Virus genome (UHGV): UHGV-0214148
Reading direction: 5' to 3' (one strand)
Origin: a virus
Length of the DNA stretch: 64,000 nucleotides
Shown: piece by piece, positions 173 through 64,000 of the stretch
Numbering within the stretch: position 1 is the first letter of the stretch
Layout: each line of letters begins with the position of its first letter
Position numbers and translations under genes: made by a program
Notes under the pieces: model-generated
The model's database searches: none
What the model saw: only the letters and a program-made list of their open reading frames with translations
What the model was told of the DNA's origin: nothing

Positions 173-562
173 TTAGCTACCTACGCTAGAGAGTATCCAA
201 TTGCTTTTGATAGCGTTAATTTGTTTAACTGATTCCCGAATGCCTTCAAACATTTTGATGCGCTCTGGCGTAGTAAGACATTGTTTAAGGTCTTTATCGA
301 GAGAGAACAACATTGCCAGTTTTGCAAGCGAAACACTCAAGATATCAGACAATTCGTTGTTTCTACGCCACTCTGGGTTATGGACGATAGTCACTAGAGG
401 ACCGATATCTTCACAAGAACATTCTTTGTTCAGTAGTTTGTCACGTTGCTCGCACAGATAAGTTTCATCTGTAATTAATCGTTCCAGGTCATCTTGACGT
501 GTGATAGCACGAGTAGAAATCATTAATACAACAAACGGGTCTTTAAATAATTCGTTTTTCAT
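173..562 (-). CDS. hypothetical protein; paralog of 58680..59051
   Basis: 129-aa ORF; N-terminus MKNELFKDPFVVLMI is identical to that of ORF 58680..59051; strong SD (AAAGGAG) upstream. Confidence 0.7.
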   Translation of the reverse strand: MKNELFKDPFVVLMISTRAITRQDDLERLITDETYLCEQRDKLLNKECSCEDIGPLVTIVHNPEWRRNNELSDILSVSLAKLAMLFSLDKDLKQCLTTPERIKMFEGIRESVKQINAIKSNWILSSVGS

Positions 563-22630: not shown

Positions 22631-22813
22631 TTAAGGTTGGCGAATGTGAGACAGAAGCAGGCCCATCCGTAATGGAACTGACGCGGCCATTGCCCTTTTA
22701 TATTGCACAGTGCGTACTTTCGATTTACCAGGTCCCTTACGTACACGGTTGTAGCCAATAAAATATAGAGTACCTGTAAAGAATCTGAGGTTATGAAAAT
22801 ATGGCTTCTTCAT
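22631..22813 (-). CDS. small hypothetical protein
   Basis: 60-aa ORF; strong SD (AAGGAGGAA); ATGA overlap with stop of upstream ORF. Confidence 0.45.
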   Translation of the reverse strand: MKKPYFHNLRFFTGTLYFIGYNRVRKGPGKSKVRTVQYKRAMAASVPLRMGLLLSHIRQP

Positions 22814-22995
22814 TGTTCCTCCTTCTCGAATGGGTTAGATTCAAGGAACTTGGAATAATCAAATTGGATTACTTGGAAACGTTTACGTCCTTTACGTGGC
22901 CCTTTGCACCAGCGTGTAACAATGGTACGGAACTTCTTCGGCTCGAAATACGTTATCGTGAAATTAAGAACATCGTCTAACATATTAGCCCCCAT
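22810..22995 (-). CDS. small hypothetical protein
   Basis: 61-aa ORF with AAGGTGAA SD. Confidence 0.4.
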   Translation of the reverse strand: MGANMLDDVLNFTITYFEPKKFRTIVTRWCKGPRKGRKRFQVIQFDYSKFLESNPFEKEEQ

Positions 22996-23003
22996 AGTTC
23001 ACC

Positions 23004-23393: not shown

Positions 23394-23609
23394 AACGAAT
23401 TTACTCCCTGAGTTAATTTAATCAGTAAGGTCGGATTAGAACCTTTTCGAAGTATTTATAAATAAATACCTTCTTGGTTTGATGTTTTCTTGGACCTTTC
23501 TTGATACGAGAGATCAAGATACGATCGATGTAACATTCTCTTATAACACGTCTTCTAGGAATGTAACAGGGAACCGCCTCTAATTCTTCCATACAACTAA
23601 CCCCACTGA

Positions 23610-27616: not shown

Positions 27617-27648
27617 GGTAATTCTCCTTTAGGGTAAAAAATGAAAAT

Positions 27649-27674
27649 ACCCTACTCCTAGTCAGGAGTAGGGT
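27649..27674 (-). terminator. stem-loop terminator, CCCTACTCC/GGAGTAGGG stem family
   Basis: ACCCTACTCC / GGAGTAGGGT stem; same stem as hairpins at 46993 and 47611; A-rich plus-side flank. Confidence 0.55.
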
Positions 27675-27679
27675 AGGTG

Positions 27680-31835: not shown

Positions 31836-31860
31836 AATTCACTCCTAAAGAATGTCTCAC

Positions 31861-31880
31861 GTAGATAATATCTGTCTGAC
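31861..31880. promoter_or_regulatory. AT-rich promoter-like motif (GATAATATCTGT variant) in divergent intergenic region
   Basis: Shares the ATAATATCT core; equidistant from divergent starts at 31835 and 31907. Confidence 0.3.
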
Positions 31881-31906
31881 TTCTTTTTGAAATTGAGGTA
31901 GTAAGA

Positions 31907-32371
31907 ATGGCTGACGAAGAAGTGAAATATCAGGCGTTTGATGGAGATGTGGACGACGAAGAATCGCTTCTCCGCCAAACGCAACAAGCCCGTGTACGGA
32001 TTGTGAATCTCATCTTAGACGATCCTCAAGCACACAAAGACTTGAAAACGGTAGACCGGCTGGGGTCTTTGCTTAACGACGTTGATAAACAAATCATTTC
32101 CAAACGTCGCGTCGCTGCTGCACAGAAAAACAGCGAAGCTAACCAAGATTTGGCGAATGCACTTAATAGCATCCTCATGCAACGTGGCAATATCAAAATA
32201 CGTCGTCACGATGAGGAAATCGAAGAAACCCAGGGCTACCAGCCCCCCGTTCCTGTTATTCCTGATGTTGAAGTAACAGAAGGGGAGCTGGCACCAGTAG
32301 GTGAACAAATCGACGTTAAGTCCATTATGACGGCGGCGTTTGCACGTCCTGAACAGGGCGAGCAAGACTAA
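31907..32371 (+). CDS. acidic hypothetical protein
   Basis: 154-aa plus-strand ORF, divergent from 31287..31835; Asp/Glu-rich. Confidence 0.5.
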   Translation: MADEEVKYQAFDGDVDDEESLLRQTQQARVRIVNLILDDPQAHKDLKTVDRLGSLLNDVDKQIISKRRVAAAQKNSEANQDLANALNSILMQRGNIKIRRHDEEIEETQGYQPPVPVIPDVEVTEGELAPVGEQIDVKSIMTAAFARPEQGEQD

Positions 32372-35842: not shown

Positions 35843-35940
35843 CGAGCTTTACCTTTATGGAAGAGTCTCGGTCATAAGGTTTGGGTGAACTGTAAAAAGA
35901 CTTTACTATGTAACCCTGACTTATAATCCGAGGTTTTAGA

Positions 35941-38593: not shown

Positions 38594-38627
38594 GGTTTAT
38601 TCTCCTAAAATGGTTAAAAACAAAGTA

Positions 38628-38647
38628 ACCCTAGCCGAAGCTAGGGT
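38628..38647 (-). terminator. stem-loop terminator (ACCCTAGC / GCTAGGGT)
   Basis: 8-bp stem, CGAA loop, A-rich plus-side flank. Confidence 0.5.
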
Positions 38648-38652
38648 GTCTA

Positions 38653-40973: not shown

Positions 40974-40999
40974 CACCTGGATAATATCTATCTAAGAAT
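40974..40999. promoter_or_regulatory. AT-rich promoter-like motif CACCTGGATAATATCTATCTAAGAAT
   Basis: Related to the 616/59101/63484 copies; upstream of gene 40214..40951, overlapping the stop of 40988..41656. Confidence 0.35.
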
Positions 41000-43907: not shown

Positions 43908-43962
43908 GTTGAATTCTCCTGTTAGTCTACATTAAAATAGTTACAAACGTTAAAAAGAAAGA

Positions 43963-43993
43963 CCCTCCTGTACCACGAATGGGTACAGGAGGG
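43963..43993 (-). terminator. stem-loop terminator (CCCTCCTGTACC / GGTACAGGAGGG)
   Basis: 12-bp stem; A-rich plus-side flank; immediately downstream of gene 43998..44456. Confidence 0.55.
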
Positions 43994-43997
43994 GGTG

Positions 43998-50462: not shown

Positions 50463-50488
50463 CCCTAATGATAATATCTATTTAAAAG
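50463..50488. promoter_or_regulatory. AT-rich promoter-like motif CCCTAATGATAATATCTATTTAAAAG
   Basis: Same core; upstream of the secreted transglycosylase gene, overlapping the stop of the macro-domain gene. Confidence 0.35.
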
Positions 50489-51431: not shown

Positions 51432-51633
51432 TCATATTCTCCTCAGGCTCGAAATGTGATTCGGGTGGCAACGTCCCTAAAGCCCCTTGGATACAAGCCG
51501 TCAGTGAAGGTTTGCCGAAACAGACCTTACCTATCGTCCCCACATTGGGATGCTGTAAGAACGCTTTCGCACGTTCGTATTCTTTCCAACAAATACTCGT
51601 ATCCAAACCACCCACTCCGTACGATTTTAACAT
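51388..51633 (-). CDS. hypothetical protein
   Basis: 81-aa ORF with AGGAGAG SD; 3' end overlaps downstream gene by 44 bp. Confidence 0.4.
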   Translation of the reverse strand: MLKSYGVGGLDTSICWKEYERAKAFLQHPNVGTIGKVCFGKPSLTACIQGALGTLPPESHFEPEENMNVHREPINLRHTVE

Positions 51634-51699
51634 AATTAGCTCTCCTGACGTAAATTTCTCACACTCATAGTGAGGTACGCCAAGAGAGCTTTATTGTTT

Positions 51700-52143: not shown

Positions 52144-52174
52144 TTGCAAACCTTAGAGACGCAAAAAAGTAAAA

Positions 52175-52303
52175 TTAAAACCAACGCACGATGACGAATG
52201 CCGCAGCGGCTAATATGGCCGTGGTGATTATCAATCCACCCCATGAAAGTTCCGCGTCGTATAGTGCGGATATCGCTACATTCGTAGTGTTTATCGAGGT
52301 CAT
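52175..52303 (-). CDS. small hydrophobic protein (42 aa)
   Basis: Hand-translated: MTSINTTNVAISALYDAELSWGGLIITTAILAAAAFVIVRWF; AGGAGCAGAAA SD; below ORF-track size cutoff. Confidence 0.35.
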   Translation of the reverse strand: MTSINTTNVAISALYDAELSWGGLIITTAILAAAAFVIVRWF

Positions 52304-52317
52304 TTTCTGCTCCTAGT

Positions 52318-52341
52318 AATACCCTCACGTCGGAGGGTATT
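52318..52341. terminator. stem-loop (AATACCCTC / GAGGGTATT) between small membrane protein genes
   Basis: 9-bp stem followed on plus by TTTT; a second hairpin (GGGCGTTT/AAACGCCC) lies about 15 bp further on. Confidence 0.35.
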
Positions 52342-52360
52342 TTCCGGATTATTTGGGCGT

Positions 52361-52459
52361 TTAATCTTCAAACGCCCATCTGTGTTGTTTAACCAGCAAG
52401 TTTAAACCTTTACCGATTAACCACATCGCACCAAGTGTTAACAGAACCCCTTCAACCAT
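52361..52459 (-). CDS. small hydrophobic protein (32 aa)
   Basis: Hand-translated: MVEGVLLTLGAMWLIGKGLNLLVKQHRWAFED; AGGAGAAGGGAAT SD. Confidence 0.35.
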   Translation of the reverse strand: MVEGVLLTLGAMWLIGKGLNLLVKQHRWAFED

Positions 52460-52470
52460 ATTCCCTTCTC

Positions 52471-52656
52471 CTAATTCCGCCATTCGCATTCGCGTTGACG
52501 CCAAATTGAACCCCACGATAGTTTAATCAGATAAGATGAAACTACCCATAAAATCATCACCACACAAAACATGACATAAAGAACCGCTAGAATGGACATG
52601 AAGCCAAACCCTGCCGCATCCACAATACGACGGAACCAATCAGTTTGCATAAACAA
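52471..52656 (-). CDS. small membrane protein (61 aa)
   Basis: Track ORF; long hydrophobic core FGFMSILAVLYVMFCVVMILWVVSSYLI; GAAGGAG SD. Confidence 0.45.
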   Translation of the reverse strand: MFMQTDWFRRIVDAAGFGFMSILAVLYVMFCVVMILWVVSSYLIKLSWGSIWRQRECEWRN

Positions 52657-55144: not shown

Positions 55145-55194
55145 ACCCACCTCCATAAAGACGGAGTGTGGTGTAAAAAGAAAAAAATAAAGAA

Positions 55195-55218
55195 AGGGAG
55201 AACCCGAAGGTTCTCCCT
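55195..55218 (-). terminator. stem-loop terminator (AGGGAGAACC / GGTTCTCCCT)
   Basis: 10-bp stem, CGAA loop, long A-run on plus side; between gene 55223..55831 and the ATPase gene. Confidence 0.6.
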
Positions 55219-55222
55219 AACG

Positions 55223-56364: not shown

Positions 56365-56401
56365 TTTAATACTCCTTTAGGTAAATATGTCGTAAAAAGG
56401 A

Positions 56402-56418
56402 CCCCGGACGTACCGGGG
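56402..56418 (-). terminator. stem-loop terminator (CCCCGG / CCGGGG)
   Basis: GC stem preceded on plus by an A-rich tract; downstream of the secreted-protein gene block. Confidence 0.5.
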
Positions 56419-56430
56419 CCAAGACTACAC

Positions 56431-58679: not shown

Positions 58680-59051
58680 TTAAATAACTGTGTTGGGTAA
58701 TGCTTTAATCTGTGTATAACTATCTCCGATACCTCTTATCATTTCCAGACGCTCTTCTGTAGAAAGGCTTTGGTTAATGTCTTTGTCAAGATTGAACAGT
58801 GTCAAGAGTTTTGCAATTGCAACCGTCAAGTTGTCGGACAGCTCGTTGTTTTTACGCCATTCTTCGTTACGGAAAATAGAGATAAGGTCTTTCGCCTGGC
58901 CTTCAGCGTGCGGTTTGGCTAACTGCGCGTCACGCTGTTCGATAAGGTATGCTTCGTTAGTAAGTAAACGTTTCAGGTTTTCTGGGTTAGTGGCAGCGCG
59001 AGTAACGATCATTAATACAACAAACGGGTCTTTAAATAATTCGTTTTTCAT
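58680..59051 (-). CDS. hypothetical protein; paralog of 173..562
   Basis: 123-aa ORF; N-terminal 15 residues identical to ORF 173..562; homologous upstream region. Confidence 0.7.
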   Translation of the reverse strand: MKNELFKDPFVVLMIVTRAATNPENLKRLLTNEAYLIEQRDAQLAKPHAEGQAKDLISIFRNEEWRKNNELSDNLTVAIAKLLTLFNLDKDINQSLSTEERLEMIRGIGDSYTQIKALPNTVI

Positions 59052-59772: not shown

Positions 59773-60546
59773 CTAATAATTAAGTTTTACATCGGCAATA
59801 AACAGCAATTGTTTACCATGTTGCTGCACTTCTTTCCAACCTAGTTTCATAGCAGCGTCAACAACATCTAACATGCTGTAACGGGACATCAAAGATTCTG
59901 ATTTTGTTCCTGACATTAAGTAAAGTGGCTCATTAGGGCTACGGTCACGTGCGTCAGGAAGTTCCCGAGAGACTGCTGATCCTTCGGGTACGGTAACAAC
60001 ATGAATCACGGTAAATGGTCTCTTGTGCGTCAGATAGATACGAAACCCAACGTGTTCAGATTCATGAAAGACTTTCTTCACAACCACATCTTTTAGTGTC
60101 GTCTGAACATCAGCCCCAGGTAATATCGTGGTTTCACGTGAAACGAAACAACGGCTATTTTCAATCGTGGAGAAATAATTACGTATCGGCAAACTAGCGT
60201 TATGATCGCGCAGTTTTTTGCTCAGTAGATCGAAGTTCAGTTCTTTAACCTTTTCTAGCCATTCTTTGGCTTGTTGAATGTAATAACTACCAACAGCGCG
60301 ATAAGTTAATACCTTACCTGTGCTCACTTGCCAGAGCTTGATGCTTAGTGAATTTGGCTTATAGCGACGATACTCACCACGCGTATAGTTGATGCGCTCG
60401 TAACGCTCTACACCGTCAACGGGTGCAGTTTCGACCGATTGTAATTGCAGCGTACGATCTAATCTATCGGCAAATAGTAGTGATGTTAGCGGGCCTTCGA
60501 TCATATACGGTTCGGTTTTAAAGATATCGTCTAAATGGACTTTCAT
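59773..60546 (-). CDS. hypothetical protein, GW/QLLF C-terminal motif family (member 1)
   Basis: 257-aa ORF ending ...AAMKLGWKEVQQHGKQLLFIADVKLNY. Confidence 0.6.
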   Translation of the reverse strand: MKVHLDDIFKTEPYMIEGPLTSLLFADRLDRTLQLQSVETAPVDGVERYERINYTRGEYRRYKPNSLSIKLWQVSTGKVLTYRAVGSYYIQQAKEWLEKVKELNFDLLSKKLRDHNASLPIRNYFSTIENSRCFVSRETTILPGADVQTTLKDVVVKKVFHESEHVGFRIYLTHKRPFTVIHVVTVPEGSAVSRELPDARDRSPNEPLYLMSGTKSESLMSRYSMLDVVDAAMKLGWKEVQQHGKQLLFIADVKLNY

Positions 60547-60568
60547 TTCTATTTCCTTCTTAACAAAA

Positions 60569-60587
60569 GCCGCGACTAAAGCGCGGC
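60569..60587 (-). terminator. stem-loop (GCCGCG / CGCGGC) between paralog family members
   Basis: 6-bp GC stem with A-rich plus-side flank. Confidence 0.4.
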
Positions 60588-60613
60588 AGTTAGAGAAAGT
60601 GTATTTTCACTTA

Positions 60614-61765
60614 TTAGAGGTCAGCAACAAACAACAGCTGACTGCCGTATTTTTGCACGTCAGCCCAACCGTAGTCTTTCCCGATTATAGGTAGATGTAA
60701 AATATCCAGCTTCTCGTCTTTCGCTTTTAGTTTCGCCATTAACGCATTGGACTCCTCAGCACTGAGGAGTAATGCTGGCTCTTTTTCAGTACGTCCTTCT
60801 GCGGTTGGGAAGAAATTGTAATAGCTGCGAGTAGGTAAATCGACAGAAAAACTACGATTGCCTATTCTGGCGATGAACGCAACTCCTTCACAGTTAGCAT
60901 CTACACTGCACGACCATCCCGCCTCCGTTAAAAGACCTTTTAACAGACACCACACTTTAAGTTGGTTCTTAGAAACTGTACGGTAAATAGCAAGATGTTC
61001 AGGAAGTAAATGTACGCCCATAACCACGTTTTCAGATTTCTCGTCAAGCAACTCTGGATGCTGTATCGGGAACAATAATTCAGTGATACCCACGTTATCA
61101 ATTTTGTTAACAAAATCAGTTAATTCATCTTTTAAGGTAGACACTTGATTTTCTCCTTTGTCTTCAATAATCAGGTGGGGTTCGCCGCTAATTAAAATGT
61201 GGTAAACGAGATCGTCAGTAGAACGGTAAGTGAGCTTGATTGCTTTATCACTTAATATTTCGTAGCGGAAGAAACTTTCGTACCAACTTGAGCCGAAATC
61301 GTTTTGTGTAAGCTCCTGCTCAACTTTGATGGTTTTTGCTTCAAAGCCGATTAACTCGCTTAATAACGCGAGTTCTTGTTTAGTTAAAATAGCTACACCG
61401 TGAAAGGGCACTTGTTCAAGCTGAAAACATAACTTAGTGACTTCACCATTTGGGAAGACCTTAAACATAATCTTCCGGTTGCTACTCTTTTCCCTAACAA
61501 CGAGTTTACGGTAATTTAGTCCACAATTTGTGTAAGCCGCGAACTGGTAACCTTCAATTTCTTCATCGGAAGTACAGACATCGACAGGCGCGATAATCTC
61601 ATCGTATTCACTAAGTACACAGCAGCCCAATTTATAACCAAACAACGTATGTTGTAAAAAATAGTCGAGGGTTAAGCTTGGTAGTGGCCAAGCCCGATTA
61701 TAGCATCTGTCCATCAGTTCTTTTAGGTACTTGGCATGTCTTGGTTTAGAAATAATATTTCGCAT
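60614..61765 (-). CDS. hypothetical protein, GW/QLLF C-terminal motif family (member 2)
   Basis: 383-aa ORF ending ...GKDYGWADVQKYGSQLLFVADL; FFPTAEGRTEKEPALLLSAEESNALMAKLKA parallels member 3. Confidence 0.6.
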   Translation of the reverse strand: MRNIISKPRHAKYLKELMDRCYNRAWPLPSLTLDYFLQHTLFGYKLGCCVLSEYDEIIAPVDVCTSDEEIEGYQFAAYTNCGLNYRKLVVREKSSNRKIMFKVFPNGEVTKLCFQLEQVPFHGVAILTKQELALLSELIGFEAKTIKVEQELTQNDFGSSWYESFFRYEILSDKAIKLTYRSTDDLVYHILISGEPHLIIEDKGENQVSTLKDELTDFVNKIDNVGITELLFPIQHPELLDEKSENVVMGVHLLPEHLAIYRTVSKNQLKVWCLLKGLLTEAGWSCSVDANCEGVAFIARIGNRSFSVDLPTRSYYNFFPTAEGRTEKEPALLLSAEESNALMAKLKAKDEKLDILHLPIIGKDYGWADVQKYGSQLLFVADL

Positions 61766-61796
61766 TTTTACTCTCCTTTAGGGGTTTTTTCGTTAC

Positions 61797-62351
61797 TTAA
61801 GCAGGGCAAGCTAAGAACAACAACTGCTGACCGATTTTACGTACGGTATACCAACCGTGGGCTTTAGCGACCGCGATCAACGTTTCCCAGTCATCAACAT
61901 CACATTGCTCGTTCCGAAGTTTTGTAAAGAGTGCTTCGGCTTCGTCTTGGTTTAATAACTTACCTGGATTATCAGGGGTGGTGCCAGAAGGGGTTGGAAA
62001 GAAATCGTATTGACACGCTAAGAGAAAATCAACCAGATACTTGGTGTTCTCTTTATAAACCAGCGTGGAAGTCTTCCCTTCGTGGAAGAAGCTGCCTGTT
62101 TTCCAAACGCTATCTTTCAGTAAGCTCTGAAGGTAATCTGTAAAGCCCGTTCTAAATGGGATATGCGTTTTACGCGTGATGTTGCGACGCAGCGGGGTTT
62201 CCTCTACAGCTTGTACACTTACCCCTACTATCATCGCACCTGGCTGGATAATGGTATTGGTCAGTACGGTATAAGGACGGACAAAGAAATGTTCGCCTAC
62301 GCCTTTTTCAAGGGTTTGGATAATTTCATTTTTCAGTTCAGTTTGAAACAT
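61797..62351 (-). CDS. hypothetical protein, GW/QLLF C-terminal motif family (member 3)
   Basis: 184-aa ORF ending ...AKAHGWYTVRKIGQQLLFLACPA; FFPTPSGTTPDNPGKLLNQDEAEALFTKLRN block. Confidence 0.6.
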   Translation of the reverse strand: MFQTELKNEIIQTLEKGVGEHFFVRPYTVLTNTIIQPGAMIVGVSVQAVEETPLRRNITRKTHIPFRTGFTDYLQSLLKDSVWKTGSFFHEGKTSTLVYKENTKYLVDFLLACQYDFFPTPSGTTPDNPGKLLNQDEAEALFTKLRNEQCDVDDWETLIAVAKAHGWYTVRKIGQQLLFLACPA

Positions 62352-62377
62352 GGTATATTCTCCTTTTAGGTTTTTAC

Positions 62378-63112
62378 TTACGCGGTTTTAATTAGCAGCA
62401 GATAGCCCTTCGTAATCTCAGCACAACTCCACCCTTTTACGGCAGCGACACCACGAAGGTAATTTTCTGTGTGATACTGTAAAAACGGATCGTCTGGATT
62501 AATCTCAACTAGGTGAGTGGCTTTAGAAATCGTTTCCGCCTCTGGGATTTGTTTTGTTAAGCCTGATGCAATCAGTTCAATAACGCGGTATCCCTCTAAC
62601 CAAGAAACATAGATACGTAAACCGTATAACTTACCGTTATCTTTTAAGGGATAAAGACTGATGCCCCGGCCGAGCAACGTTAATTCTACATCAGTGGGAA
62701 GGTTTTCTACATGCTTGATTAACCCTACCCCATGTCTAAACAGTGGGAAGTAAGAGTATAGCGTCAGCATACTGCTTCCTCCAATAAACGTAACATCGGA
62801 AACGGTAGGCGTGCTGGCAATGAGGCGAACATGTTCCGCTACGACTTCAAGTTCGGCGTCACTGATCAATTTATAGAATAAAATGACGCTGGTTTCGGTA
62901 TTAAGAACAAAGAAGAACCGGTTGGCGTGACTGCTTATCGTGTATTCGTCAACCATGCTGTCGATAACGTCACTGTCTGGATAATCTTCGGGTTTAATTG
63001 TTTCAGCAGAGACTAACTTAGCAGGTTGGGATTGCCCTATTAGTTCATTAACCACCGTAGAAGAAAGTTCTAAACTGGTGTTAGTAAAGATATCGTCTAA
63101 TAATTCACTCAT
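62378..63112 (-). CDS. hypothetical protein, probable divergent member of the GW/QLLF family
   Basis: 244-aa ORF ending ...AAVKGWSCAEITKGYLLLIKTA (weaker match). Confidence 0.5.
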   Translation of the reverse strand: MSELLDDIFTNTSLELSSTVVNELIGQSQPAKLVSAETIKPEDYPDSDVIDSMVDEYTISSHANRFFFVLNTETSVILFYKLISDAELEVVAEHVRLIASTPTVSDVTFIGGSSMLTLYSYFPLFRHGVGLIKHVENLPTDVELTLLGRGISLYPLKDNGKLYGLRIYVSWLEGYRVIELIASGLTKQIPEAETISKATHLVEINPDDPFLQYHTENYLRGVAAVKGWSCAEITKGYLLLIKTA

Positions 63113-63453
63113 GATTTACTCGCTAATCTCAATAAAGGGGAGTCTATTATTATGGATTGTAAAAGAGGTATAAGGAAGTCACTACGTTCCTCTGGGAAGA
63201 GTATGTCGGTATACTACGTATACCTCCGCTATTTATATCCGTATACATAATGCCCCCTACCCCCTACCGGTATCCCGAGTAGCAGAATAAAGGGGCAGAC
63301 TGTAAAATTTTAGTACCTGTTATCGGAAGGTACTAAATGGAGTGTAGTCTTTAAGCCGTTTGAGCAGCTCATTGAGACTTTCTTTCTTTTTAGTAGACAT
63401 GATCTGTCTCCCCAAATGGTTTAATCAATCCGTTTCGAATGAAACGTGTCCGT

Positions 63454-63480
63454 AGGGGCTGAACTGGCACTTCAGCCCCT
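63454..63480. terminator. stem-loop (AGGGGCTGAA / TTCAGCCCCT) adjacent to promoter-like motif
   Basis: 10-bp perfect stem; flanks are not strongly U-rich in either direction, so function is uncertain. Confidence 0.35.
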
Positions 63481-63483
63481 ATT

Positions 63484-63508
63484 CACTTAAGTAATATATA
63501 TCTGAAAT
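63484..63508. promoter_or_regulatory. AT-rich promoter-like motif CACTTAAGTAATATATATCTGAAAT
   Basis: 24/25 identical to the 59101 copy; directly after hairpin 63454..63480 and about 25 bp upstream of the plus-strand start at 63534. Confidence 0.4.
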
Positions 63509-63533
63509 CAATTCCGATCTAAGGAACGTCCCG

Positions 63534-64000
63534 ATGGAGAAATCCAGTGTTGATTTTTTCTCAATTGGTATCGTCGCGGAAGACAAACCCCGTGGTACAG
63601 ATCGGGTAAAAGTGATACCAATTGAAACCAACTTTGCTAACCCTACCGTGGTGCAATCTGTTTCTTCAGCAACTGAAAAGACGCATGAAACGTCTGGCGC
63701 AACAGATAACCTAACCATTAAGACGGGTAACACGATAACAGCAAAGTGGTGGAAGTTTAACTCCAACCGAATTAATTCCCCTGACGTTAAACGAGAAGAC
63801 TACGTTATCTTGTTACGTTTGGGGAAAACCGATATTTATTTTTGGATTGATCTGAACTTCGCTAACGTTAAGCGATTAGAAGATGCGGTTTATGCGTGGT
63901 CGGCTGACCCTGAAAACCAAATGGCGGATGACTTGTCCAATGCGTATGTGTTGAACGTTTCGACGATTGACAAACATATCACGCTAAGAACAAGTATGGT
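63534..64000 (+). CDS. hypothetical protein, partial (continues beyond window end)
   Basis: ATG at 63534 with AAGGA SD 8 nt upstream; open to window edge (155 codons, hand-translated). Preferred over the antisense track ORF 63479..63766. Confidence 0.5.
   Translation, partial: MEKSSVDFFSIGIVAEDKPRGTDRVKVIPIETNFANPTVVQSVSSATEKTHETSGATDNLTIKTGNTITAKWWKFNSNRINSPDVKREDYVILLRLGKTDIYFWIDLNFANVKRLEDAVYAWSADPENQMADDLSNAYVLNVSTIDKHITLRTSM

Follow-up and report, generated by a model that had tools for sequence, protein, structure and literature searches.

Gene regulation in the phiKZ-like jumbo phages is organized around two phage-encoded RNA polymerases, the signals of which are partly known. For the group comprising SPN3US, Erskinevirus and Machinavirus, we know of no non-coding RNA (ncRNA) or cis-element that has been characterized, and literature searches for SPN3US ncRNAs returned nothing relevant. 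In phiKZ, 17 candidate short RNAs are derived from 5′ untranslated regions (5′ UTRs) by premature termination, and two of them were confirmed by northern blot (Putzeys et al. 2024, PMC10914365). The late promoter of phiKZ is T-3ATG+1 (PMC7598289); the promoters of the virion RNA polymerase (vRNAP) of phiKZ-related phages are AT-rich and highly conserved, start transcription ~6 nt downstream, and often sit where oppositely transcribed early and late genes part (PMC5312081, PMC7598289). Here, we describe an intergenic region, positions 63113–63533, in a 64,000-nucleotide stretch (the window) of the virus genome UHGV-0214148, which belongs to an uncultivated phiKZ-like jumbo phage related to Salmonella phage SPN3US and the Erwinia phages of the genus Erskinevirus. 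The left half of this region holds a conserved non-coding element of ~110 nt, for which a structured leader or small RNA transcribed from the minus strand, in the manner of the phiKZ 5′ UTR-derived ncRNAs, is our favored, though still tentative, reading.

The region separates a minus-strand gene (62378..63112), the last of a block of paralogs, from a plus-strand gene starting at 63534. The product of the latter is 60–83% identical to the ‘baseplate assembly protein’ of phages in the next four genera (Erwinia phiEaH2 and Asesino of Erskinevirus, Salmonella SPN3US and SPAsTU of Seoulvirus, Machinavirus, and Wellingtonvirus) and matches phrog_3216, baseplate assembly protein, with E=5e-66. These relatives are phiKZ-like jumbo phages, each with its own multisubunit RNA polymerases. 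Relatives with 95–100% protein identity are metagenomic contigs only, 220–228 kb in length, and a search of 50,697 deposited phage genomes returned no near-identical match to the region. Two lineages of close genomes are compared below, window-type (seven genomes) and L126-type (six genomes); L-numbers label the genomes of relatives, with L158 denoting Erwinia phage EarlPhillipIV and L153 a more distant contig.

The region is a divergent intergenic control region between the leftward accessory-gene block and the rightward baseplate gene, and we propose that the minus strand carries most of what is read there. Two parts are to be distinguished, a predicted early-promoter module in the right half and the conserved non-coding element in the left half. 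The original prediction, made from the single sequence, had offered three possibilities for the region as a whole: a structured leader or ncRNA, a protein-binding site array, or a replication/packaging-related element. The first fits the left half (63191–63301), which is conserved, single-copy and covarying and which, on the minus strand, lies downstream of a conserved promoter-like motif; the right half is an ordinary early-promoter module. That the region is non-random is demonstrated mainly by conservation and covariation among relatives, not by the single sequence. The element and the features surrounding it are as follows.

63191..63301, minus strand: single-copy non-coding element of ~110 nt, candidate leader or small RNA, recognized by conservation, synteny and covariation.
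63300..63311, minus strand: P2, TTTTAC-type promoter-like motif AAAATTTTACAG, at a fixed spacing to the G-run.
63173..63191, minus strand: H_D, extra hairpin (AGGAA...TTCCT), a partial duplicate of the 3′ part of the element, present only in the window and Erskinevirus clades.
63157..63167, minus strand: P3, second TTTTAC-type motif, directly upstream of the leftward gene.
63148..63154, plus strand: TATTATG of the window sub-lineage, candidate late-type (T-3ATG+1) start for rightward transcription.

Read along the minus strand, the element comprises, in order, hairpin H_A (63264–63282), a G5-UA-G5 tract (63253–63264), the H_B region (63229–63252), CGGAG, hairpin H_C (63208–63224), CGACAU and a pyrimidine tail. 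The block shared with relatives reads, on the plus strand, AAGGAWGTCG, a hairpin, CTCCG, a variable hairpin region, CCCCC-N2-4-CCCCC, a ~35 nt spacer and GTAAAAAAG. The GTATAC palindromes and the CCCCCTA repeat that had drawn attention to the region fall inside the element. The direct repeat CCCCCTA CCCCCTA lies exactly where it had been placed, at 63253–63266, and CCCCCN2-5CCCCC occurs once in the window against an expectation of 0.13. All three GTATAC palindromes are likewise present, but their positions had to be corrected to 63209–14, 63218–23 and 63241–46, spanning 38 bp rather than 25 bp (63219..63247). A perfect 7-bp hairpin, GGTATAC-TAC-GTATACC (63208–63224), is formed by the first two. 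Outside the element, the H_D stem also varies, with AGGAA/TTCCT in the window, GAGGA/TCCTC in Asesino and AAGGA/TCCTT in phiEaH2.

The element is present in one copy in the 64-kb window and in one copy in the whole 240-kb SPN3US genome, in which it lies at ~161.5 kb and an nhmmer profile returned a single match (E=1.5e-17; next best, E=1.6); CCCCCN2-5CCCCC is likewise unique in the SPN3US genome. A repeated promoter or operator was rejected on the grounds of this single copy. Synteny extends to all relatives whose baseplate protein is at least 60% identical, in Seoulvirus, Erskinevirus, Machinavirus and Wellingtonvirus: the element is always adjacent to the baseplate gene, and its leftward neighbor changes. 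The Derbicusvirus phage EarlPhillipIV possesses a reduced element from which the apical stem is gone; here, at ~1830–1880, a 14-codon open reading frame (ORF; MKTLRTRMSLRSVY) with a strong Shine–Dalgarno (SD) sequence (AAGGAGG) overlaps the reduced element, and this ORF occurs in no other clade. The element is absent from the L153 contig and from phiKZ/KTN4, and a homologous element in phiKZ was rejected, the homologous gap there being just 64 nt. Pattern scans of viral contigs (ATGTCGGT..CCTCCG and C-run..GTAAAAA) returned, among the matches listed, mostly chance occurrences and three true copies in genomes already known.

Across the 13 close genomes, identity over 130 nt around the element is 98.1% (minimum 95%), as compared to 93% overall and 83% at third codon positions (minimum 66%) for the adjacent baseplate gene; constraint on the non-coding element thus exceeds that on the coding sequence, a pattern of strong purifying selection. 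That the element is instead a decayed protein-coding gene, or is coding on either strand, we regard as next to impossible. In relatives, the paralog block and the baseplate gene are separated by an additional gene of 105 aa (SPN3US gp174, phrog_18565); in the window, the element is overlapped on either strand by ORFs of 31–32 aa; and an ATG lies within AAGGATGTCGG in 8 of 13 lineages. However, tblastn with three gp174 homologues found nothing in 63113–63533, the best match in the window having E=0.34; relatives have gp174 beyond the element; L132, L133 and L135 lack the ATG; and the indels of the clades are not multiples of three, nor are the ORFs conserved. With no gp174 remnant and no conserved frame, a decayed or coding element is effectively refuted. 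The original prediction had named a conserved coding gene at this place in related genomes as the observation that would speak against a non-coding region; what relatives possess is the 105-aa gene beyond the element, and the window holds no remnant of it.

The structural evidence centers on H_C, which is located between GTCG and CTCCG on the plus strand. At least eight different stems occupy this position, each with p 0.0004–0.003 against shuffles: GGTATAC/GTATACC (window), GGTATCC/GGATACC, GGTACTC/GAGTACC, GGTGAC/GTCACC, GGTAGC/GCTACC, GTCT/AGAC, GGAT/ATCC and GTCG/CGAC. In a 17-sequence alignment, 87% of the H_C cells are paired, as compared to 68% in shuffles and 35–58% in slid registers, and the covariation score of 0.43 (against 0.11) was reached by none of 500 shuffles. 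Of the seven inner pairs, six show double changes; the corresponding figure in shuffles is 4.9, counted over the seven inner pairs plus the three pairs at the base. At the base of the hairpin, an invariant GGA is paired with UCC across a conserved 4-nt bulge. Structure conservation among relatives, one of the checks that had been proposed for the region, is thereby borne out for H_C. Two further small hairpins, H_A and H_B, flank the C/G-run in most lineages with differing sequences; their registers differ between clades, and they could not be brought into a single alignment. From MAFFT alignments, RNAalifold predicted just a part of H_C for the plus strand and, for the minus strand, a G.U-rich long-range helix, which is without covariation and was not relied upon. 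Pairing of the G-run with a 5′ pyrimidine stretch was also set aside, being found in some lineages (window, L134) and inconsistent. The covariance-model search that had likewise been proposed matched no Rfam family: neither the window region nor any of five relatives gave a match with E≤1, and two window matches with E 2–8 were far below gathering scores. ARAGORN found no tRNA in the region.

H_C is strand-symmetric, and indications of strand come from other observations. The motif CTTTTTTAC, the reverse complement of GTAAAAAAG, lies 31–37 nt (mostly 35–37) from the G-run in 21 of 21 genomes, the window clade included, while the distance from P2 to the rightward TATGA varies by about 12 nt. 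TTTTTAC is found upstream of SPN3US genes 10 times against 0.9 expected, and its reverse complement twice; four other SPN3US genes have CTTTTTTACG at 50–125 nt upstream. Intergenic DNA makes up 6.8% of the window sequence and contains 13 of its 47 minus-strand TTTTAC sites. The middle hairpin is more stable on the minus strand through G.U pairs, at −15.4 kcal/mol (z −5.2) versus −3.9 in L132, −8.8 versus −2.4 in SPN3US and −11.5 versus −3.7 in L137, with L156 similar. Folding of the whole element leans the same way, with a mean z of −1.4 on the minus and −0.6 on the plus strand. In the Wellington clade, the SD sequence of the leftward gene directly follows the element, and the element is therefore the 5′ UTR of that gene. 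Taken together, the spacing, the motif distribution, the middle hairpin and the Wellington clade favor a functional minus strand. SPN3US, Erskinevirus and Machinavirus have an equivalent of P3 (TTTTAC or TTTTAAC); the Wellington clade, whose leftward gene stands directly after the element, has none.

On the plus strand, the L126-type genomes and every clade other than that of the window have TAgTATGA ahead of the baseplate gene. In SPN3US it precedes the baseplate gene and six other structural genes, always on the same strand, and at the element locus it stands back-to-back with the TTTTTAC motif; its sequence fits the phiKZ T-3ATG+1 late promoter. In the window, TAgTATGA is absent between the element and the baseplate start, and the sole candidates are at 63148–54, to the left of the element, and at 63202–05, inside it. 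TATTATG is present and TACTATGA to the right of the element is absent in seven of seven window-type genomes, and the reverse holds in six of six L126-type genomes; with two lineages to compare, this hints weakly that TATTATG may be a late-type start in the window sub-lineage. These observations bear on the possibility that the element belongs to the plus-strand 5′ leader of the baseplate mRNA, with an SD-like AAGGAUG and an anti-SD-like CCUCCG around H_C controlling translation or stability. We consider this quite unlikely. It would agree with the window-type genomes, in which TATTATG lies to the left of the element and a proximal late motif is lacking, with the TATG at 63202–05 throughout the close clade, and with wobble pairs that fit the plus strand only, in L135 and L157 (H_B) and in L144 and L147 (the 63453–81 hairpin). 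The plus-strand AAGGAUGU resembles an SD sequence or a CsrA-type GGA site, although a role as CsrA site or SD decoy was set aside as a matter of resemblance only. In all compact relatives, however, TAgTATGA is downstream of the element, 15–25 nt before the baseplate start, which would leave the element outside the baseplate mRNA. Furthermore, no conserved plus-strand promoter motif is found to the left of the element, where the leftward gene of the Wellington clade starts 20–30 nt away, and the plus strand folds worse.

Another possibility is that the element acts as double-stranded or extruded DNA, to which a phage protein would bind at an array of sites and so control the back-to-back promoters; it might, for instance, activate or insulate the late promoter of the baseplate gene, or mark the border of the early and late units. 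Nearly every base of the element is conserved, including the unpaired runs CCCCCN2-4CCCCC, ATGTCG and CTCCG, its place beside the baseplate gene is constant while the leftward neighbor changes, short GTCAA/GTCR repeats are adjacent to it in several clades, and its folding z-scores are unremarkable, all of which would suit a protein-bound DNA. Nonetheless, we judge an array of this kind unlikely. The palindrome symmetry is kept while the sequence changes freely, whereas a conserved site for a dimeric protein would show the opposite; the element is still ultra-conserved in the window-type genomes that lack an adjacent TAgTATGA; and it keeps a fixed distance to the minus-strand motif but not to TATGA. 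A second divergent junction in the window (35843–35940, corresponding to SPN3US gp214/gp215) carries the plus-strand CTGTAAAAAG-N6-TACTATG and the minus-strand GTCTTTTTACAG back-to-back with no conserved element. A back-to-back TATG/TTTTAC junction can hence do without the element, which is not a general part of such promoter pairs.

A model for transcription across the region can be put forward. The injected virion RNA polymerase would start at the putative early promoter at 63486–63505, and the early transcript would open with the 5′ stem-loop at 63453–63481 and a second small hairpin, encode a dispensable 26-aa peptide (63400..63320) and then meet a weak terminator-like hairpin at 63309–63337. 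Adjoining this hairpin, the conserved TTTTAC-type promoter-like motif at 63300–63311 would head the ~110-nt element, from 63301 down to 63191. The predicted RNA would present small hairpins around the invariant G5-N2-4-G5 tract and would end in a bulged hairpin, with a freely covarying apical stem and a base that pairs an SD-like GGA(GG) with UCC, followed by a pyrimidine/U-rich tail. An RNA of this design could serve as a structured 5′ leader that is also able to end as a short RNA, as an attenuator or a leader-derived ncRNA. As a leader, it would govern how much, or when, the leftward genes that happen to follow are expressed.

The likeness to the phiKZ 5′ UTR-derived RNAs is one of lineage and of arrangement. 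Both occur in phiKZ-like phages that use their own RNA polymerases; in both, a promoter (here, a promoter-like motif) is followed within ~100–150 nt by a hairpin and a U-rich signal ahead of the first gene; and the same position is conserved among relatives with no conserved ORF. The two share no sequence similarity, and the candidate RNA described here differs in that its terminal hairpin is bulged and parted from the U-rich tail, and in that it is conserved over four to five genera, more so than the adjacent gene. Attenuators and leader RNAs of bacteria and phages provide a second comparison: in these structured leaders, an SD-like GGAGG can be paired with a pyrimidine strand, and a hairpin with a U-rich tract stands before the regulated genes. 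Read as a leader, the element resembles them on both counts. Unlike them, it offers no leader peptide, recognizable ligand-binding fold or Rfam match, and no alternative antiterminator helix could be shown.

Several observations weigh against a minus-strand leader or small RNA. The terminal hairpin is parted from the U-rich tail by the conserved CGACAUCC, and the tail, strongly U-rich in Machinavirus and SPN3US, is weak in the window and Wellington clades; termination is doubtful because the tail of the window clade is not U-rich. A scan of 63113–63533 found no intrinsic terminator consisting of a G+C-rich stem-loop and a U-run, CGACAU separating H_C from the pyrimidine tail. Besides H_C, no helix fits one register across clades, and the strand symmetry of H_C deprives it of value as an indicator of strand. 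Folding of the whole element exceeds that of shuffles only modestly (in the window, minus-strand z −2.6 and plus-strand z −1.3) and does not exceed it in SPAsTU and L139. Much of the conservation thus lies in unpaired sequence, and that nearly all unpaired bases are conserved suggests a bound partner. To these are added the plus-specific wobble pairs, the window-type genomes that have TATTATG to the left of the element in place of a proximal late motif, and the nature of TTTTTAC itself, which is short, T-rich and often found after terminator T-runs. Finally, the identity within the close clade could in part be due to recombination rather than constraint.

The invariant G-run behind a promoter-like motif also invites comparison with origins of replication that form an R-loop or a primer, such as those of ColE1 RNA II, T4 oriF/oriG and mitochondrial CSB II. 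Here, transcription from TTTTTAC would produce a G-rich RNA (G5N2-4G5, at ~+30 to +45) that hybridizes to the C-rich template and primes DNA synthesis, with the hairpins shaping the RNA for hybrid formation. As in the known examples, a promoter (here, a promoter-like motif) and a G-rich RNA over a C-rich template occur in one copy per genome: the element is single in 240 kb, the only CCCCCN2-5CCCCC lies there, and the promoter-like motif is at a fixed distance from the G-run. In SPN3US, the element also stands at a switch in gene orientation that is a local minimum of the cumulative GC skew. However, gene orientation accounts fully for this minimum, and there are other such switches; a single G5N3G5 in 240 kb is near chance (0.13 per 64 kb); and unlike the known origins, the element has no evident AT-rich unwinding region, nor are there obvious iterons. 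The Derbicusvirus copy is reduced, and related phages with the same replication genes, L153 and phiKZ, are without the element. An R-loop origin is a very improbable explanation. Less radical than an origin, though also novel, would be a phage small RNA acting in trans, with the invariant G-rich loop as its seed or as a protein-binding site. A literature search found no mapped origin for phiKZ-like phages.

The right half of the region is arranged around a putative early promoter. Its features, together with the terminator-like hairpin that adjoins the element and the start of the baseplate gene, are listed below.

63486..63505, minus strand: early (vRNAP-type) promoter motif TCAGATATATATTACTTAAG, recognized by motif recurrence.
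63453..63481, minus strand: 5′-proximal stem-loop of the early transcript (TAGGGGCTGAA...TTCAGCCCCTA), an inverted repeat with 14-nt arms.
63431..63446, minus strand: second small hairpin, CGTTTC-GAAT-GAAACG, of the early 5′ UTR.
63320..63413, minus strand: mini-ORF of 26 aa, with its ATG at 63400, stop at 63320–22 and SD-like GGGGAGAC at 63406–63413.
63309..63337, minus strand: perfect 10-bp inverted repeat over the mini-ORF stop, a weak terminator-like hairpin, then AAAAUUUUAC.
63521..63533, plus strand: ribosome-binding region (AAGGAA) of the baseplate gene, with the ATG at 63534.

With up to three mismatches, TCAGATATATATTACTTAAG occurs in three copies in the window against 0.01 expected, all of them minus-strand and intergenic and 40–90 nt upstream of minus-strand ORF starts. 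The SPN3US genome holds six exact copies of the core, all on the gene strand. In all nine copies examined in the window and SPN3US, the motif is followed by a stem-loop of differing sequence, and a conserved predicted start region, TTAGGTGAG, and 5′ hairpin are seen at the copies. On these grounds, 63486–63505 is a predicted early promoter of the virion-RNA-polymerase type. Like the vRNAP early promoters of AR9 (AAATATATATTAT-N6-G) and phiKZ (an AT-rich consensus), it is AT-rich, here as an extended, nearly invariant ATATATATTAC, and it is present in several copies per genome, co-oriented with the downstream genes and located between oppositely transcribed early and late genes. It differs from them in its group-specific consensus, TCAGATATATATTACyTAGGTGAG, and in that every copy is followed by the 5′ stem-loop. 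A scan of 63113–63533 found no sigma-70 promoter and no canonical terminator. The genes behind the other two copies in the window (173..562 and 58680..59051, minus strand) are paralogs, 55% identical, that both begin MKNELFKDPFVVLMI.

The hairpins that had been noted in this half are all present as described: the 14-nt-arm hairpin (63453–66/63468–81) followed by the AT-rich motif, the CGTTTC/GAAACG hairpin (63431–36/63441–46) and the perfect 10-bp inverted repeat (63309–18/63328–37). Both sides of the 63453–63481 stem change among close relatives; because no T-run follows it on either strand, it is not a canonical terminator. Close relatives retain the 63431–63446 hairpin with changes in its loop; L125, L141 and L143 have lost it by deletion, and in L142 its pairing is kept solely as a U.G wobble on the minus strand. 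The 63309–63337 hairpin is AT-rich with AUUUU after it and was not flagged by the terminator scan; in L126-type genomes, a different hairpin takes its place.

The 26-codon mini-ORF was found where the original prediction had put it (63320..63400, minus strand), with GGGGAGAC upstream, and is the first ORF behind the early promoter. It exists in close relatives in three allelic forms of 25–26 aa, MSTKKKESLNELLKRLKDYTPFSTFR, MSTEKKSGLDEVIELFKRYNPAIPR and MFAEQKDGIEEVVRLFRHYSPYLPR, all with the SD sequence and about the same length. Between L126 and L127, 32 of 78 nt differ, distributed 10/7/15 over the three codon positions, with ORF length and SD sequence kept; substitutions mostly at third codon positions suggest that the mini-ORF is a real small gene. 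Frameshifts disrupt it in two window-type genomes (L130 and L144), and a deletion has removed it from four others (L125 and L141–L143); it is hence dispensable and being lost in the window sub-lineage. The frameshifts in L130 and L144 stem from length variation (13, 11 or 9 nt) of the TTTCTTTCTTTTT run at window positions 63378–63390, which could be real slippage or metagenome assembly error. No homologue was found in SPN3US, and no PHROG matched. Judging by its substitutions and losses, the mini-ORF is probably a genuine but dispensable early gene and not part of the RNA structure.

The right end of the region had been set exactly, with the baseplate ATG at 63534. Its description as the longest intergenic stretch in the window hinges on gene calling: the ORF list leaves longer gaps at 31836–32324 and 52150–52639, and these hold smaller ORFs. 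More generally, the stretches left empty when only ORFs of 90 aa or more are listed (22759–23003, 23394–23609, 51432–51699 and 52150–52639) contain short ORFs with SD-like sequences and are likely small genes rather than non-coding DNA. To the left of the region, four consecutive minus-strand genes (59773..63112) resemble a paralog family with common C-terminal motifs, for instance G.QLLF(I/L/V)A, and have no Pfam or PHROG match; the equivalent block in SPN3US is gp175–179, and the gene number varies among relatives.

Two further types of junction recur. Three exact copies of AGATATTATC (31864–31873, 40980–40989 and 50470–50479, all on the minus strand) lie just upstream of minus-strand gene starts. 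The same motif appears as (C)AGATA(GA)TATTATCT in the SPN3US divergent junctions before gp9, gp22, gp34 and gp221, with its k-mers enriched upstream of genes, and is probably a further promoter class. Many minus-strand gene junctions, in turn, are bipartite: they begin with a G+C-rich terminator hairpin and its T-run, behind which comes another T-run that ends in TTTTTAC or TTTTTAAC ~20–40 nt before the next start; examples are at 27617–27679, 38594–38652, 43908–43997, 55157–55222 and 56365–56430.

Half of the region is thus ordinary, consisting of a putative early promoter, a 5′ hairpin and a small accessory ORF, and the other half is a genuinely conserved, unannotated non-coding element. The candidate promoter motifs that emerge for this group of phages, namely the early motif, AGATATTATC, TTTTTAC and the late TAgTATGA, would improve annotation. 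If true, the R-loop reading would make the element the first mapped origin in an enterobacterial nucleus-forming jumbo phage. With one copy per genome, a length of ~110 nt, a distribution over four to five genera and a clearly covarying hairpin, the element is a well-defined experimental target; SPN3US amber mutants exist (PMC5694885), and genetic tests of it are therefore feasible.

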